The position numbers were made by a program, and so were the translations under genes. Below are positions 8,625 to 59,503 of a stretch of DNA of 64,000 nt, piece after piece. Under the pieces are notes generated by a model, which was not told the origin of the DNA, ran no database searches, and saw nothing but the letters and a program-made list of their open reading frames with translations. Each line of letters starts with the position of its first letter. Position 1 is the stretch's first letter. Source of the DNA: Lophium mytilinum (taxonomy: Eukaryota); NCBI GenBank assembly GCA_010093605.1, contig MU004183.1, positions 186,001-250,000 of the forward strand. The letters run 5' to 3'.

Positions 8625-9780
8625 CGAACGGAAGTAATGCTGCCCACAGCACTCCTGACAGCGGTGTCAAAAGAGCAAGGATACAGCCAGAGCCGTAGCA
8701 TATTCATGTGCTTGGAATCACAGCTTCAGATACAATTGCAAAAGTCGACCCCGTAGAAACTAGCCTACCTTTTGCAGAACCAAAGTGAATTTTCCCAGGG
8801 TACTCTTGACGGTGCTATTACAAGGATAATAGTAAAGCTAAAGCCCGTCTATATCTATTTATCTAAAAATATAACCTGAAATACAATTGCAAAAGTCGAC
8901 CCCGCGGAAATTAGCCTACCTTTTACTGGACCTAAGTAACGTTTTCCAGGGCACTCCTAACAGCACTATTACAACAACAATATTAACGCTAAAGCCCGGC
9001 TATATCTATATGTCTGAAAATATGGCTTGAAATACAATGCTAACATCAATACCGTGGAACCTAGCCTACCTTTGAACAGAGCGAGGTAATACTGCGCTCG
9101 GCTCTCCTTACAGCGCTATCACGAGAGCAATAGTAAAGCCATAGCCCCGCGGTAACTACCATGCAAAGGTCGACCCCGTGGAAACCAGCCTACCTTTTGG
9201 CAGACTAAAGTATTGCTACTCAGGGCACCCCTTGCAGTGGCATCAAGAGAGCAGGGCTGAAGCCAAGGCGCTGGTGTATCCACGTGTCTAAAACTAAGAC
9301 TAAAAAGATAACATAAAAGCCAACCCAGCGGAAACCAGCCAACCTTTTAATGGATTGAAGTTATGTTACCTAGGGCACTCCTAACATTGCTATTAAGAGA
9401 GTAGAATGCGAAGCCAAAGGTCGTAATATATCAGTACTATAAACACCAACACGCTAGATCAGCATTACACTTCATGCAAAGGTCGACCCTATGGGAATTA
9501 GACCACCTTTTGAATGACTAAAGTTATGTTACCTAGGGCCCTCCTTACAGTGGCGTCGGAAGAGCAAGGGTAAAGCTCGAGGCCGAGATACCTTAGTACT
9601 ATTAACATTGCCACGCTAAAACAGCATTGAACTCGATGCAAAAGTCAACCCAATAGAAATTAGACAACCTCTTAATAGGCTAAAGTCGTGTTGCCTATGG
9701 CTCTCCCTTAGAGTGGCATCAAGAGAGCAAGAGATAAAGCCAGAGGCCACGATACACCAGCACTGTAAACACCACCACCC
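8604..9780. repeat. Degenerate tandem array, ~8 units of 124-163 bp (array B)
   Basis: Core TGCAAA(A/G)GTCGACCCCGTGGAAACTAGCCTACCTTTT...AGGGCACTCCT.ACAG recurs with its GTCGAC-equivalent at 8744, 8895, 9045, 9169, 9319, 9482, 9644, plus a partial first unit from ~8606. Confidence 0.9.
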
Positions 9781-52590: not shown

Positions 52591-53870
52591 CTATCGTGCA
52601 TTTCCGCGCTTGAACCATCCGATGAGGCTGAAAGGTAGCACTCCTTCTCCCGGGCTCATTCTCGAAATCGGATATGTCCATACTGGCATCGTCCACACCA
52701 TCCACGCACAGACCCAAATAAAGCCAACGATCTTCTGCCACAGCTTTCCGTCTTCGTTCTTACTAGTTCCAGTCATCGCAGCCACCAGATCCTCAATCGG
52801 AAGTCCAAGTGCCTGGACGCTGAACCATTCCCTTACTCCAGACTCTCTCATGGGAACGCCAGCAGCGACATCTCCCACCACATGTATGAGGCCGGAGAGC
52901 TGGAAGACAAGCATGATGTAGAAGTATCTTCCCACAAGCGATGACGTTGGCAGGTGGAAGATCTGGGTCGTAATGTATCGCGCTGGACCGGTGAGCGAGG
53001 TGCCCATGCCCTGGTGCCAGAATTTACTATTCTCGTCAACTCAAGGCCCGCAAATCACAGAATCACAAAGACCTACTTCCAAGCACCTCGTAGCGACGTG
53101 ATATTCGACAGGTCTCCAAACAATGGTCTCCATGACGCAACTTCATTCAAACCTGAACCAACCATAACGATTGCGCTACACGTGTACATCGCCTGGAATA
53201 GGAGGTAGGTTGTGAGAGCCGTTGCGATCGAGGAGCTGACGCGGACCACTATCTCGCCTTTAGTCACCTCGGATAGTCGAGTGAAGAGTGGGACGAAGCG
53301 TTGATCAAAGAGAGCCTTGTTCTGGGACGTATCTTGGCCCGCAATCGAGATACGATCTAGCAGGAGGATGCAAATGAGGCATCGTAAAGAGTTCTTGGCT
53401 AGGAACTCTCTTCGAGAAGGAGTTCTCAGGGGGTCCTTCGCGTCGAAAGAAGGGACGTTTTTCGCTTGCCACGGGGTTCCACAGTGCCTTTTATCGAAAA
53501 CAAGCCAAAGGCCGAATATGAAACGATCGTAAATCGAGCCGGTACGATGTTCCGTGAGCATCTCGCTAGGCGGCGGGTGCCCCTTTGCCGAAGATGTTGG
53601 GCCTTGAGTTTCGTATGTCCATCGTTGGAGAAGGGCGACATCGACGTATTGAAGCGACACACTAAAAGTCGTGCCTCCCGCAAGGTTCGGGTAGATTGGA
53701 TGGGTAAACCAATCCCGCTGGGTTGGCGAAACGAGGACTATCAAGACATAAGACAGCATGAGAATGAATCCCATAATTCGGTATCTTGAATTTGACGAAG
53801 TGAACCCCAGGACGAACACTGAGGTGAGTATAGAGAGAGTAGCAGCGAGAAGAGGATCCTGAAGAAACAT
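52591..53870 (-). CDS. Membrane-bound O-acyltransferase (MBOAT_2 / wax synthase / Tri7-like), 2 exons
   Basis: Exons 53870-53077 and 53026-52591. WRPLFG...SLRGAWNKFWHQ and VFQLSGLIH motifs; multiple TM segments. Confidence 0.82.
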
Positions 53871-54724
53871 GGTTGTAGAGAGGACTTGGCCTTCGAGAGA
53901 ACTCTGGGAACGAACGACTAGGCGAGCGTTGAAACTACTTTGGAGTCGAATCTTTGAGACGAGCTTGTCTTCTCGCAGCAGCAAAGGTGAAGTCGAAGGA
54001 AGCGGCGTAGGCGGCGAAGCTAGACAGCCTTGGAGACACGTCAGCTTAGAGCAGCCAATCAAGTGACCCTTTACCAAGATTTATCAATGCTAGATGAATC
54101 GTCCTTGTTTGAGCTAAGATCTATGAAAGACGTCTAGGTACTGTACATACAGTGTAACGCATTTTTAGTTCGTGACACCGTGCCAATAAACACAAACCTC
54201 TCGGTCCCCGATGCGAATCAACATGCGTAACCATACGTTTGACCCCAATTGCCCTTTGCATATCAACAATCCTTCAGCGCAATTGTGGACAAGGGAAATG
54301 CCCAATGCTTTAGGCCAATCACATATCCTTTTTCGTCTAGTTTTGTCAACTAATGCAGCTACCGAGTGTGATTCCCCTTAGAACCACCGCAATGCCACTC
54401 GAGTTGACCGAAATGTCCAACGCAGTTAGGTCGGTGTTATTAGCAATCTTGTAGTGTTTCGGAACAGTATTAGAAGTCCGAGTCAGATGTAAAGTCCGAC
54501 GGGACGTAATTGAGAAAGAGCGGCAAGTTCTCATGATGAAATGAGCGAGGCGAAGTGATCTGTACGGTGAGCGGCAGTAAGATGGAAAAGCAATAAGACC
54601 AGATGTGGGGGCCAAAGGCTGTTGTATTGATGATGGTGAGGAAGCAAGCTAATGAGCGGGTGAGGAAGGATACACACCAGATGCTGAGTAAGCCCGCTAG
54701 AGAGGAACCGGCCCGACAACGTCT

Positions 54725-56930
54725 ATCAAAACCCTTCTACACGGTCAGATCCGTAAGTTCTTCCTCATCTTATAGCTAATTCGCTCCAAGAGATGGCATC
54801 CTTCGTGGCCCTAGTGTGCCTACGCCACGTTTAACAAAGTCGCCTCGACACGGTTGATTATGTACAAACATCTTACGAAAAACCCCTATTTTTAGCCTGA
54901 GGTGTTTCAGCAACAAATCATTATCCTCACGCCGTCGACCTGATTCAGTCCTAGCCGGCGGTGGGCACGAAGCAACTACGTAAGGTAGACGCAGCGTGCT
55001 CTCGGCAGCTATTGAACTCTCTTCTACGCGGTTGATTCTGTATAAACTTGTAACCGGCCTACGTTATTTCTGTTGTGAGGTGCCCCGGTAGAATAGTTCC
55101 TTACTATCCTCGGAACACAGAGCTGATCTAGGGCCTTTGATTTCTGCTATCAGAAATGAGTACAATATCGCCCCTGATACAGCGTCTCTAAAAAAGTCGT
55201 TCACACGGTTAGATCTGTGACTCTTTGTAACTGAAGCTCCTAGATCTTAGCCGGAAGCACTTTCCTAGGTTTTCATTATGCTCTTCACGCAGAGCCGATT
55301 TAGGGCCCGTTGCTTCTGCTATTTGGAATTTGTATAATACAGCCACTCTGCGTGCCGCTCTGCGTGCCCTCCGCGTGTCCTAAAAATTCCTTTACACGGT
55401 TAGATCTGTAACTCTTTGTAAGTAAGACTCTGTTATCTTAGCTAGACGTGCTTCGCAAGCTTTTTATTATCTTCTTAACAGTAAGTTAATTTAGACCCTC
55501 TTACTCCGGTTATAAAAAGCCACCACGCTATGGCCCCCTTAATGTACCCTAGGCGTCTCAAGCAAAATCATTCACATGGTTAGACTGGTAAGAACTTGTA
55601 ACCAAGGCTTCTAGATTCTCGCATGTAGTACTCCAGCGCCAAGACTCTTATATACAACTATCCTCTTATCTAGAACCTAAACCAGACCCTCCTACTTCTG
55701 ATAGAAAAAGTAACCACGCCACATCCCCCTCCGCGTAGCCTCCGTGTCTCCCAAAAATTCTATATACACAGTTATATCCGTAAGAGCTTGTAACTAAAAC
55801 TCCTATAGTTAGCTTAGGACACTTCCGGAGCTTACTTCCTATGCAATCATCCTACTTCCTAGAGGCTAATATAGAGGCGCTGGTATTAGGGTTAAAAGTA
55901 ACGACGCCGCGTCCCCCCTCCGCGTGCCTCTAACGTCTCTACATTTTAATCTAGACAGTTAAATCTGTAACAACTTGCAATAAATGCATTAAACCCTTAG
56001 CCCGAAGCGCTCGAGCAACTTAGAGCCTGTAGCTATACATCCTCTTTCCTAGAACCCGATTTAGAGGCGCGGGTAATAGGGTTGAAAGCAACCACGCCAC
56101 ATCTCCCTTTACGTCTCCAAAAACTCCATCTACACGGTCAAATCCGTAACAACTTGCAACTAAGGCCTAAAATACCTAGCCTGAAGTCCTCTATCTCCTG
56201 ATATCTTGTAGCCAGCAAACCTTTTTCCCGCGACCTGATTTAAGAGCAACGAGCAAAGCGTTAAACGCAACCACGCCGCTTCCCCTCCTATAAACTCTCT
56301 CACGCGGTTAGATCCGTAAAGCTTGCAACTAACGCTCCAAACCCTCAGCTTGACACGCTCCTAGAGCTCAAGGCTTGTAGGAAAGGATCCTTTTTCCTAG
56401 AACCTAATTAAAGAGCATCGGAAAAGCGCTAAAAGCAAACCCTCCGCGTCTCCAAAATTTCCATCTACACGGTTAGATTGGTAAGAACTTCCAACCGACT
56501 CTAAAGATTTAGCATAGACCGCCCCCGGAGCTCGATTCTCGTGCAAGACAATCCTCTTTCCTAGAACCTGATCTGAGAGCCTCGAAAAAACGTTAAAGCA
56601 ACCCCTCCGCGGCTCCTAAAAACCCATCTACGCGGTTAGATCCGTGACAACTTCCAACCGCCTTCCTAGATCCTGAGCCTGGCAAGCTCCCGGAGCTGTT
56701 CATGTAAACCTAACGATCGTCTTATCTAGAGGCTGATTCGAGAGCACCAAGAAAAGGGTTGGAAGTAATCACGCCGCGTACCCTCCGCGTCTCCTTGAAA
56801 AACGTCTCGCGCGGTTAGATCCGTGACACTTTGTAGTTGTTTTGACCAAAAAGGTTAGGGGATGTAGTACCTCATTGGTGGCCTCGCTGGAGGAAAGAAG
56901 TGGAAAAGGTCACGAGTCTAACCGCGCATA
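54725..56930. repeat. Degenerate tandem array, 13 units mostly 163-192 bp, with terminal inverted core (array C)
   Basis: Core CTAC(A/G)CGGTTAGATCCGTAA..(A)CTTG.AAC, with its ACGG-equivalent at 54741, 54850, 55028, 55205, 55396, 55576, 55768, 55955, 56134, 56304, 56469, 56632, 56811. Secondary blocks TTTCCTAGAACC, AACCACGCC and CCCTCCGCGT. No ORF of 60 aa or more in the interval. Confidence 0.92.
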
Positions 56931-57304
56931 TCAATTTTCATAGAGCCGTCGCAGACACCAAGAAGCTCTCTCACCATCGAGCCCCTTAAGTAGCCAACCG
57001 TAAAAAGAGGCGCTAAATGAATAGACTTGGGATGAATTACGGAACCGAGTATGGATAGTATTAATACCAACACCCCAATTCTCAAATAAATGCAAATCGT
57101 GACTTCATCAACTATGGATAAGAAGGGACGACGCTCCTATGCCTATGTGATGTTACCCAGCCCTACCCATCCGATGCATACAAAACCTCCCCCACAGCCA
57201 ACCACTAGGACCAATACCTGTAGCTCGCTTTATCGTCAAGAAATAATCAAAAACACCGTGGCCAGAAATTCAAATTCCATGTAGGACCCATTTTCTTTCC
57301 CCTC

Positions 57305-58983
57305 TTATCTAACAATACCCCAGTTAATCGTCCGTCCTACCGGCGCCTTCTTCTGCTCCGCCCCAGCCCCCGTCGCCGCATCTACGCCTCCACTCGGCGC
57401 AGGTTCGAGCGCGAGGTTCGGCTGGCTGGCATGGAAACTCGTGTATGGCGTGAAGAAGCCTTGCTGGTCGATGAAGCCTTGGCTAGGGTAGCGCTGGGGC
57501 GTGGCGGGCGGGTGCATATATGGATCGTATTGCGGAGGCGGGCGGGGCGCGTGGGTGGAGCGGTAGGTGGAGAAGGCGTAATTAGAAATGACGAAGATCG
57601 TGATCAGAACGAGGGATGTGAAGAGCTGCAGTTCCAAGTTAGTGATGAGATAATGAGGTAGAACAAAGGATATTGAACGGTAGGGGGCATGGGATCGAAC
57701 GTACCATCGCCTTATACCCAATCTCCTCAACAAAACTATTGAAGATCATCGCAAACGTCTTCGCGCTCACGCTCGCGCGCGCGACCTTCCTCGCATCCCG
57801 CTCCTTGCACGCTGCCCAGTTGCCACATAGTTGTTTTAGGGATGGTGGTGGGTATTTGTGGCCGCATCCGTTTTCTTCCCAGTCTCTGGCGCACTTTGCG
57901 ATCTCGATCATGACTTCGGTTTGGGCGCGCTGGGCCTGGATGTCGACTTCGTGCGTGACGGCACTCCAGCCGGACCACATGATGTACATGGCGGAGAAGA
58001 CGAGGAAGAGGTTGAGAAGGAATTGGGCGTAGAAAGAGAGGATATGAGGGAGGCCGGGGTGGTTCTCTATGAATGAGAAGACGCTGGCGATTGTGCTGCC
58101 TCGGGGGATCGCTGGAGTTGCTGGGACCTCAGGGCGCTTCTTGTCGGTATTGTTGTCCTCGTCGTCCTGATCGCGGTCCCGATCTTGTCTGTCTTTTTTG
58201 CTACCTCGCTCTCGCTCTCGCCGCCGCCGCGAGCGCCCACCGTCGTCTTCAGAGTCTGATTCCATGTTCTGTTGTACGGCCTCACGGTTGACGCCCTTCT
58301 GATGCCGCTTCTTCGTTATTCGCTTCTCCCCGTTGCGCGAGTAGTGATCCGCCTTCACACTTTGAGAGCTCGGCCGCGGACTGGAATTGAAATTGAAGAA
58401 ATTCCCGAACAAGCTCTCCCGCCTGCTCTTACTCGGGCTACCCCTCCCACCTTTGCTCGGACTGCTAAGCATCCTATTCAGTCTACCAGGCCGCGCACCC
58501 GTCTCCGGCGTCGCCTCACTATCCGCACCCACGTCCGGCGTATTCGGCGTCTCCCCACCAGACGAGAACTCAACCTCCTTCGTCGGCGTGCGCGTATCCC
58601 ACGCGGACGAGTTATGCACGTGGGCGAGGCCCGGGTTCGGGGGCAGCGGCTTCTGCGGGCTGGGCGGATTGTTGAAGTAGAAGGGCTGGTTTGCTGGGTC
58701 GCGGAGGCGCGGGTAGTTTGCGTTTGGCTGGTCGATCCGCGTGGGCGACTCGAGGACGCTGTTGTGATTGCCTGTACGAAAAAGAGAGGTTGGAGTTAGT
58801 CTATGCGCGTGATTTATGAGAGGAGGTTGGGGGGTGGGTGGGTCGCTTACGCTTTCTGGCGGTGTTGTTCATGTTCGCCATGTTGTTTCGCGGAAGCTGC
58901 ATGAACGGGGAGGTTGGGTCGGTGTCGCCAGTCTTGTTCGCCCATTCAAAGTCCATTGGCACGGTGGACGTGCGTCTGTCCAT
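57305..58983 (-). CDS. BRL1: Nuclear envelope protein, Brl1/Brr6 family, 3 exons
   Basis: Exons 58983-58851, 58771-57705, 57625-57305. N-terminal PMDFEW; two TMs flanking a four-cysteine luminal loop (CARDWEENGC...CGNWAAC); FAMIFNSFVEEIGYKAM. Confidence 0.85.
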
Positions 58984-59503
58984 GATGCCAGCGGTAGAAT
59001 AAAGGTTGCAGAGAGGTGTGAAGCAGCGGAGGGGACGGGAATGCGGTTGCTAGGAGAGGCTCGAGTGGTAAACAGTGGTTTGCGGAGGTGTCCCAAATAT
59101 CCGGTAGGTGTGGCGGTGCGGTACGCCACAGATTCTTCGACTGTTTTCACGTGGAAGCTGCCGACCCGTTCCCAACCACGAAATTTATCTAATGTAGTGT
59201 GTGGGTGGTGAGGAGAACTTTGAAGTGAAGTTCGTGGATGGGGTTGACTTTATTCACATTAGGGGAAGTTCGTAAATGCAATACAGAATTCACCAAGTGG
59301 TGTCTGACTTGACCAGGCATCTGCTTTACACGACATAGATACAATTTATTCGAAGTGATGATATTAAGCATTTCTACTATTTACAGCTCGTCTAATAGCC
59401 ACGGAATACTACTCGAACAACAGGATATCGCTAGTCTAAACCCACAAAGCCTGTCACAAACGCCGACCTTCTTGCGTCACATGAAAACATAAAGTCAACT
59501 AGA

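Follow-up and report, generated by a model that had tools for sequence, protein, structure and literature searches.

Short tandem arrays dispersed in the Lophium mytilinum genome carry candidate ORC–Cdc6 binding sites

Introduction

What keeps a short block recognisable in a run of otherwise strongly diverged repeats? This question is raised by a 64,000-nucleotide stretch of the Lophium mytilinum genome (GenBank assembly GCA_010093605.1, 43.4 Mb in 49 contigs; contig MU004183.1, positions 186,001 to 250,000, here G000:C3:186001-250000). In this stretch, called the window below, a tandem array lies between an MBOAT_2-family gene and a Brr6/Brl1-like gene. The spliced genes of the window, its quinate-cluster-like gene set and its NACHT-ankyrin gene suggest a filamentous ascomycete, in agreement with top Rvb1 hits to Chaetomium entries. 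An initial annotation of the array, made from the sequence alone, saw nucleosome-length units with a palindromic core. As explanations it offered a protein-binding or chromatin-organising array, a small-RNA locus, or an undescribed repeat. We find that the array is one of a family dispersed over at least 92 loci, and that the conserved part of each unit is better described as an asymmetric 27–28-bp element read on the opposite strand. By its sequence, this element resembles the 27-bp consensus of Yarrowia lipolytica origins to which the origin recognition complex (ORC) and Cdc6 bind, YATRNNNNNNCNRWWYWRNNNNYVYAA (Bauer et al., bioRxiv 10.64898/2026.03.10.710760, of which excerpts were available). 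Positions in the element are numbered along that consensus. The best reading of the units is as tandem ORC–Cdc6 sites, which would make the arrays compound replication origins. We advance this reading tentatively, as one that may well be right but that we stop short of calling probable.

Census, orientation and spacing of the family

A 17-letter core pattern had 209 matches in the genome against 27 for its control, and two further pattern searches gave 58 and 54 matches against none. A profile search of the fetched loci delimited 400 units at 86 loci on 20 contigs; seven loci held a single unit, and the window array was the largest. The core profile found 402 sites in the real sequence and none in the reversed sequence, so the family is not a product of chance. 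A search with an adapted consensus contributed another 19 units, six of eight candidates chosen by eye being new members. The family thus comprises at least 419 units at no fewer than 92 loci, no array holding more than 14 units and spacings running from 80 to 220 bp, which bears out the suspicion of an undescribed repeat. From 16 known and six new loci among the first 100 adapted-consensus matches, we roughly estimate a total of about 120 loci. The density of arrays is one locus per 350–470 kb. Contigs C3, C12 and C20 seem array-rich for their size, with 13, 11 and four of the 82 clusters among the matches listed.

Subfamilies were common to different loci, with identities of up to about 80%. 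Among the inter-locus alignments seen, whose ends were not aligned individually, there were no shared termini and no young copies, and the only shared flanks were simple repeats. Matches in other organisms amounted to four viral and 27 metagenome lone hits without family flanks; a longer pattern matched nothing, and plasmids gave no match. No such satellite arrays in fungi were found in the open-access literature searched.

The arrays mix orientations. There were 14 inverted pairs, 11 of them back to back and three facing (at two loci, with gaps of 65, 65 and 53 bp), and 299 of 300 same-strand gaps measured at least 53 bp. At one locus (G000:C3:158714-159408; L022, L134) orientation alternates strictly, back-to-back neighbours being about 70 bp apart and facing ones about 65 bp. 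The nucleosome-length unit does not hold as a family rule: 138 of 284 same-strand spacings fell at 160–195 bp, 89 at 85–125 bp and 40 at 130–159 bp. Spacings instead formed a ladder near 89, 100, 111, 121, 135, 145, 156, 167, 178 and 189 bp, with a period of 11.3 bp (R 0.45 for 172 de-replicated values, reached by none of 2000 jitter controls). Helical phasing at 10.5 bp fitted less well (R 0.04–0.08) and was rejected. Inside the units there are 11–12-nt subrepeats (autocorrelation 1.75 at lag 11 and 1.56 at lag 12), and size classes differ beside the core; the ladder can be accounted for by subrepeats being gained and lost there. Back-to-back inverted pairs step similarly, with gaps of 59, 69–72 and 81–82 bp, so that a spacing constraint may operate beside the subrepeats. 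That each 180-bp unit might consist of two 90-bp monomers was suggested by eye and dropped (mean z 0.26 forward and 0.28 reverse over 55 units).

Location of the arrays relative to genes

Gene calls around the arrays came from a rough codon model, for which 18 frames of the window served as the training set; the flank was too short at 13 loci. None of the 73 arrays examined overlapped a called coding segment, and the arrays are thus intergenic. The gaps that hold arrays were convergent in 31 cases, tandem in 16 and divergent in six, compared with nine, 49 and 27 for gaps without arrays, a comparison biased by adjacency and introns. Within 1.5 kb of arrays, 73 gene ends were 3' and 17 were 5', whereas solo long terminal repeats (LTRs) gave 12 and 17. 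Orientation to the nearer gene end was not fixed (34 antisense, 20 sense). The flanking genes were unrelated and ordinary. A Pfam match was obtained for 62 of 109 flanking segments, and no transposase, recombinase or reverse-transcriptase family was among them.

The convergent-gap bias, together with the fixed gaps of the inverted pairs, led to a comparison with replication origins. According to the available part of the source, strong Mcm sites of Saccharomyces cerevisiae likewise favour convergent gaps (PMC10945306).

Similarity to the Yarrowia origin consensus

On the minus strand, the core fitted the Yarrowia consensus with a mean of 3.21 mismatches over its 16 specified positions (400 units), against 5.82 in the next register, and of the 96 registers tried, the chosen one ranked first by both measures. 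Among permuted motifs, an equally good fit arose in none of 1500 trials that kept the layout and in two of 1500 full shuffles. A mutagenesis-derived Yarrowia motif, which is not independent of the consensus, selected the same register, with one in 1000 as good. The match per position was 0.76, 0.86, 0.08, 0.95, 0.93, 0.77, 0.95, 0.98, 0.97, 0.60, 0.98, 0.96, 0.97, 0.88, 0.48 and 0.67; twelve of the 16 positions were matched in 76–98% of units. The G at position 22 (0.92) and the R at position 26 (0.94) agree with the structure-derived GNNYR end. The 5' flank is T-rich and GC content is 0.47, compared with 0.52 for the surroundings; early Yarrowia origins have a comparable T-rich flank and lower GC (Bauer et al.). 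As a negative control, a second array family (19 units) showed no fit to the consensus, 567 of 600 permutations being as good.

The family is therefore like the Yarrowia origins in length, register, the G22/R26 pair, the T-rich 5' flank, intergenic location and GC below the surroundings. It is unlike them in having A at position 3, T-Y-A-C in place of the C-rich Orc4/Cdc6 element, an added, near-invariant ACCG and a weak 3' end. The family sites are also paralogous and tandemly repeated, while the word 'tandem' is absent from the available text of the Yarrowia paper, which counts 556 origins (Bauer et al.) against the one family locus per several hundred kilobases found here. The likeness is thus one of sequence, and with two defining elements lacking we would not file the family as Yarrowia type.

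Selection on the core

Substitutions were counted in 48 arrays of at least four units, with each minority base counted once per array and the spacer columns taken as the neutral rate; events in related arrays are partly dependent, which makes the p-values optimistic. Several core positions changed at 0.28–0.53 of the spacer rate. Constraint extends from about position −2 to position 23, a length near that of the 27-bp consensus. At degenerate Yarrowia positions, changes that keep the motif occurred at 1.19 times the spacer rate (235/197.3) and those that break it at 0.53 times (102/192.6). At positions 2, 3, 14 and 15, A/T swaps outnumbered transitions by 43 to 28, as against 244 to 548 in the spacers (Fisher p about 1e-6). 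Reading through the minor groove predicts tolerance of A/T swaps, and the excess fits such a protein reading, unlike drift. Taken together, the counts indicate that purifying selection acts on a core of about 28 bp, with degeneracy by base class, as at a protein-binding site, so that the initial annotation appears justified in suspecting more than neutral decay.

The form it had proposed for the core fared less well. The palindrome ACGG-N6-CCGT was exact in just two of the 14 window units and 16 of the 400 family units. Short blocks are indeed kept while the rest has diverged (pair identity 0.73 in the 17 core columns, 0.51 elsewhere), and one of the blocks named, CACGGTTAGATCCGTAA, was found exactly not once. 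CGG-N6-CCG is the geometry of Ppr1/UaY-type Zn2Cys6 dimers, with which the family shares one well-kept CGG. The left half-site was present in 300 of 400 units, whereas the right one was present in 67 and missing in 333; the base that completes the right CCG changed at 0.90 of the spacer rate, that is, it drifts freely. As the full geometry occurred in 51 of 400 units and five of 14 window units, the dimer site was rejected. Conservation is highest at CGGT of the plus strand, three of these four positions having events at 0.28–0.40 of the spacer rate. Repeat-induced point mutation (RIP) was rejected as the source of unit divergence because its spectrum was not clear, C>T changes reaching 0.155 at CpA and 0.133 at CpT.

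Points against an origin function

A number of results weigh against reading the units as ORC–Cdc6 sites. Agreement with the 27-bp consensus to within two mismatches was reached by 119 of 400 units, at 56 of 86 loci and in five of 14 window units. The AT element (A and T at positions 2–3) is not reproduced: A is present at position 2 in 0.86 of units, and position 3 has T in 0.08 and A in 0.88. T at position 3 is among the most consistent Yarrowia positions in the material available, where the AT element is described as read via the minor groove with C-G excluded, and where the change tested was T13C (Bauer et al.). Position 3 of the family is A or T in 0.96 of units, with A/T swaps favoured by 21 to 12, and a minor-groove reading would allow the change from T to A. 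The Orc4/Cdc6 element (CC at 10–11, then NRW) is likewise incomplete, with C11 at 0.93, R13 at 0.77 and W14 at 0.95, and with C10 and C8 at 0.06 each; the CC is lost, position 10 being A in 89% of units. Single C changes are tolerated in Yarrowia and double ones are not (Bauer et al.). The best-kept bases of the family (ACCG at 19–22, T8 and A10) are N in the Yarrowia consensus, and a structure-only motif did not fit, with 430 of 1500 permutations doing as well. In the Orc5-BP element (YVYAA at 23–27), the matches were 0.96, 0.97, 0.88, 0.48 (R 0.94) and 0.67. Positions 25–27, critical in Yarrowia (Bauer et al.), showed no constraint within arrays (breaking changes 16/16.2 at position 25; all events 1.15–1.23 times the spacer rate).

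The comparison itself calls for caution too. The motif was picked after seeing the data, and two of the four motifs tried fitted. Slid registers reached a break/keep ratio of 0.55, compared with 0.44 in the chosen register, and the substitution counts therefore show selection more than Yarrowia-likeness. In the search for lone sites, the exact consensus had 93 hits against 54 for the control, many of them in similar copies of a TA-rich repeat, and the adapted consensus had 164 against 117, about what family members explain. As lone sites were not evidently in excess, the family must be less than the full set of origins. The TA-rich repeat occurs on many contigs and has probably undergone RIP; its dozens of matches to the exact consensus are likely an effect of composition.

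Orientation and location add further objections. Most inverted pairs (11 of 14), including the back-to-back pair of the window, face the wrong way for loading of the MCM helicase between two sites, and a search for hidden inverted sites in the spacers found none. A replication-type skew at fourfold sites was absent in a comparison of low power (GC skew −0.247 and −0.256). In Yarrowia, origins are found preferentially in intergenic regions and promoters (Bauer et al.), and the origins of T. delbrueckii and K. lactis have no orientation bias. The second array family, unrelated to the core family, shares its 3'-end bias (11:2), so the location of the arrays is not specific to an origin function.

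Proposed mechanism and comparison with known systems

In the mechanism proposed, each unit would offer one asymmetric site, about 28 bp long, to a large DNA-binding complex, for which ORC with Cdc6 is the likeliest candidate. The complex would bind and bend each site and load MCM on the 3' side, the gap of at least 53 bp leaving room for the helicase. Repetition of the site would make licensing redundant or stronger in those gaps that receive the ends of two transcripts. Units would have been copied among loci long ago and then multiplied locally by tandem duplication, their length changing in steps of about 11 bp, while selection kept the site and the spacers drifted. Given the density of arrays, they could be a subset of origins only, perhaps the strong or early ones. 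The wider proposition is that a filamentous ascomycete specifies its strong origins by a Yarrowia-like ORC–Cdc6 sequence, spread as a tandemly multiplied repeat family with helicase-sized gaps in 11-bp steps. Judged from the sequence, this is plausible, and we hold it with more reserve than the reading of the sites themselves.

Genes for Orc4 and Cdc6 are present in the host genome. Host Cdc6 carries a run of basic residues close to the C-terminus. Host Orc4 has a long, low-complexity N-terminus and, judged by eye, a short Gly/Ala-rich wing in place of the long insertion segment, with its helix, of S. cerevisiae. The base-reading residues of the Yarrowia type include Cdc6 K548/R557, Orc2 R150, Orc3 R220 and Orc5 R357/R362 (Bauer et al., available excerpts). 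Orc4 of the Schizosaccharomyces pombe type carries AT-hooks, according to the accessible part of Hu et al. 2020 (PMC7560902). The host protein is unlike it, no GRP AT-hook being seen in the Orc4 N-terminal frames read (L194:1498-2100, L195:1540-2400).

Origins of S. cerevisiae consist of an ARS consensus sequence (ACS) with B1 and an inverted B2, as given in the parts available of four sources (PMC12002289, PMC12440816, PMC10945306, PMC1635292). Like the family arrays, they are intergenic and prefer convergent gaps, and the three facing family pairs, 53–65 bp between inner edges, come near the loading optimum of 70–90 bp described for synthetic two-site origins in the material available. The ACS, however, did not fit the family (130 of 500 shuffles as good), and most family sites lie on the same strand, without a hidden inverted partner.

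MATE elements are kilobase-sized, with defined ends and internal short repeats. The related AMA1 sequence acts as a replicator in Aspergillus nidulans (PMC11401059, partial text). The family is like AMA1/MATE, which is tied to autonomous replication in a filamentous ascomycete, in being dispersed and internally repetitive; it is unlike MATE in that no ends or target duplications were seen, and the likeness is by description only.

Alternative explanations

Zinc-cluster factors read CGG, and bound proteins can terminate transcription as roadblocks. The core may accordingly be the selected site of a protein other than ORC, such as a general regulatory factor, or a zinc-cluster factor on one CGG half-site with a minor-groove partner. 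Placed in tandem behind gene ends, the sites would then serve as roadblocks to transcription, as insulators or as barriers to nucleosomes; the fit to Yarrowia would be a coincident purine/pyrimidine pattern. Taking these variants together, we regard such a protein as possible, if on the doubtful side. It would account for the best-kept CGGT, which the Yarrowia consensus leaves free, and for the excess of 3' gene ends near arrays, which solo LTRs do not share. An RNA contig of the Brr6-like gene stops about 100 bp short of the inverted unit, as a roadblock would have it, and the 11.3-bp ladder is visible in back-to-back gaps as well. However, the single-register fit across 16 positions is left unexplained, the units may point either way with respect to the closer gene end, the ladder can arise from subrepeat indels, and no candidate protein emerged.

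The arrays might also be an old, dispersed short-array satellite or the relic of a non-autonomous mobile element with no present host function, its core kept by gene conversion or by a past mobilising enzyme and its position reflecting tolerance of insertions in 3' gaps. Short euchromatic satellite arrays are known from the Drosophila X-linked 1.688 type, and the CENP-B box is a conserved protein box in a satellite. The units are head-to-tail homologous monomers with a local similarity gradient, as in a satellite; whole units align within arrays, with identity falling with distance, and the arrays share with the 1.688 type their short, dispersed head-to-tail form among genes, subfamilies across loci and internal subrepeats as in classical satellites. 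The same 3' bias in an unrelated second family also favours this explanation. Unlike those known satellites, the arrays are much older (neighbour identity about 60%), mix orientations at fixed gaps, have a strong convergent-gap bias and show base-class selection on the box. Against the explanation, position-specific base-class constraint, with A/T swaps exceeding transitions, is unexpected from drift or conversion. The alignments seen had no shared termini, flanks or young copies, the 109 flanking segments held no mobile-element family, and no RIP spectrum was clear. We therefore consider a functionless satellite or relic unlikely. That the units act as RNA, either as clustered small RNAs, as initially proposed, or as elements of 3' untranslated regions, is very improbable: the arrays do lie behind gene 3' ends, yet Rfam gave nothing with E as high as 1 (7 loci), there was no transfer RNA (29 loci) and no consensus fold among 108 cores, and the units occur in mixed orientations, both sense and antisense to the closer gene.

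The origin reading bears on a wider question. AT-hook Orc4 occurs in many fungi, and how the remaining ones specify origins is described as being of major interest (Hu et al. 2020, PMC7560902, accessible part). No origin map or consensus for a filamentous ascomycete was found among the papers listed by searches of the open-access literature, subscription journals not being covered. The 92 mapped candidate loci and the position-by-position motif make the fungal origin question testable. If the units are origins, sequence-directed recognition of the Yarrowia type would be older than the divergence between budding yeasts and filamentous ascomycetes; tandem paralogous sites would be a new origin architecture, in which an origin could behave as a satellite; and the sites may yield a short replicator for fungal vectors. 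If they are not, there would remain some other protein with about 400 selected sites behind gene ends.

The window array and its neighbours

The coordinates of the array, its sites and the adjacent features are given in Table 1. The 13 same-strand cores of the initial annotation and their spacings (109, 178, 177, 191, 180, 192, 187, 179, 170, 165, 163 and 179 bp) were reproduced exactly. Its right end was set too early: an inverted 14th unit, 100 bp after unit 13, had been missed. A comparable inverted end pair was found at G000:C12:137024. The window units could be aligned along their full length, and nearer units were more alike, as had been noticed, with identity 0.61 at distance 1 and 0.47 at distance 10 (11 units). 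A 15th unit at about 54,420, left of the LTR, was a weak string match without profile support and was discarded. A coding relic (WD40- or ankyrin-like) was also rejected, the six-frame translation being full of stops and the spacings multiples of 3 in 36 of 92 cases.

Table 1. Array units and adjacent features in window coordinates; each site spans 27 bp in the Yarrowia-consensus register
Feature	Coordinates	Strand	17-mer core start	Remarks
Left neighbour, MBOAT_2-family gene	52591..54089	-		5' end towards array; intron 53027-53076
Solo-LTR-like element, 151 bp	54568..54718			TG..CA; flanks ACGG/ACGT; abuts unit 1; multi-copy
Whole tandem array	54719..56960			13 head-to-tail units and one terminal inverted unit; ends approximate
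Unit 1 site	54737..54763	-	54740	3 mismatches
Unit 2 site	54846..54872	-	54849	5 mismatches
Unit 3 site	55024..55050	-	55027	3 mismatches
Unit 4 site	55201..55227	-	55204	2 mismatches
Unit 5 site	55392..55418	-	55395	1 mismatch, best of window
Unit 6 site	55572..55598	-	55575	3 mismatches
Unit 7 site	55764..55790	-	55767	3 mismatches
Unit 8 site	55951..55977	-	55954	2 mismatches
Unit 9 site	56130..56156	-	56133	2 mismatches
Unit 10 site	56300..56326	-	56303	4 mismatches
Unit 11 site	56465..56491	-	56468	3 mismatches
Unit 12 site	56628..56654	-	56631	3 mismatches
Unit 13 site	56807..56833	-	56810	2 mismatches
Unit 14 site	56903..56929	+	56910 (17-mer 56910-56926)	4 mismatches; inverted, back to back with unit 13, 69-bp gap
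Right neighbour, Brr6/Brl1-like gene	57033..59320	-		

The position between MBOAT and BRL1 genes was confirmed on both flanks; the gap that the window array occupies is tandem, not convergent. RNA contigs of run X3, spliced and identical to the window, covered the array patchily, with one 356-nt contig at 54,757–55,112; as these contigs show neither level nor strand, this cover is evidence neither way. A single RNA contig (51,288–54,089) covers a convergent glycosyltransferase-2 gene (plus strand) and the MBOAT gene (minus strand), with GT..AG and CT..AC introns, which suggests that the two genes have overlapping 3' ends.

The array region was said to lack both open reading frames and LTRs. 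There is indeed no long open frame on either strand; an LTR-like element of 151 bp, however, lies directly to the left of unit 1. With its TG..CA ends, short target duplication and multiple copies, it carries the marks of a solo LTR. At least 25 genomic copies were found (the window copy and L088–L111), with 71–90% identity and 4-bp target duplications; the 4-bp flanks were identical in nine of 24 scored copies and agreed in three of four bases in eight more. Array cores were near only two of the 25 loci, and the solo LTR is thus a separate family and no part of the array. Solo-LTR-like pieces were also present in deep contigs of run X3.

A second tandem array, apparently unrelated to the first, was found at 8630–9780 of the window, with seven units spaced 151, 150, 124, 150, 163 and 162 bp. 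It begins directly after the stop of a NACHT-ankyrin gene, and its family recurs at no fewer than nine further loci, which likewise mostly follow the 3' ends of genes. Between about 24,650 and 41,000, the window also holds a cluster resembling those for quinate/shikimate utilisation, with a repressor-like pentafunctional remnant, a Zn2Cys6 activator, dehydrogenases and a transporter.

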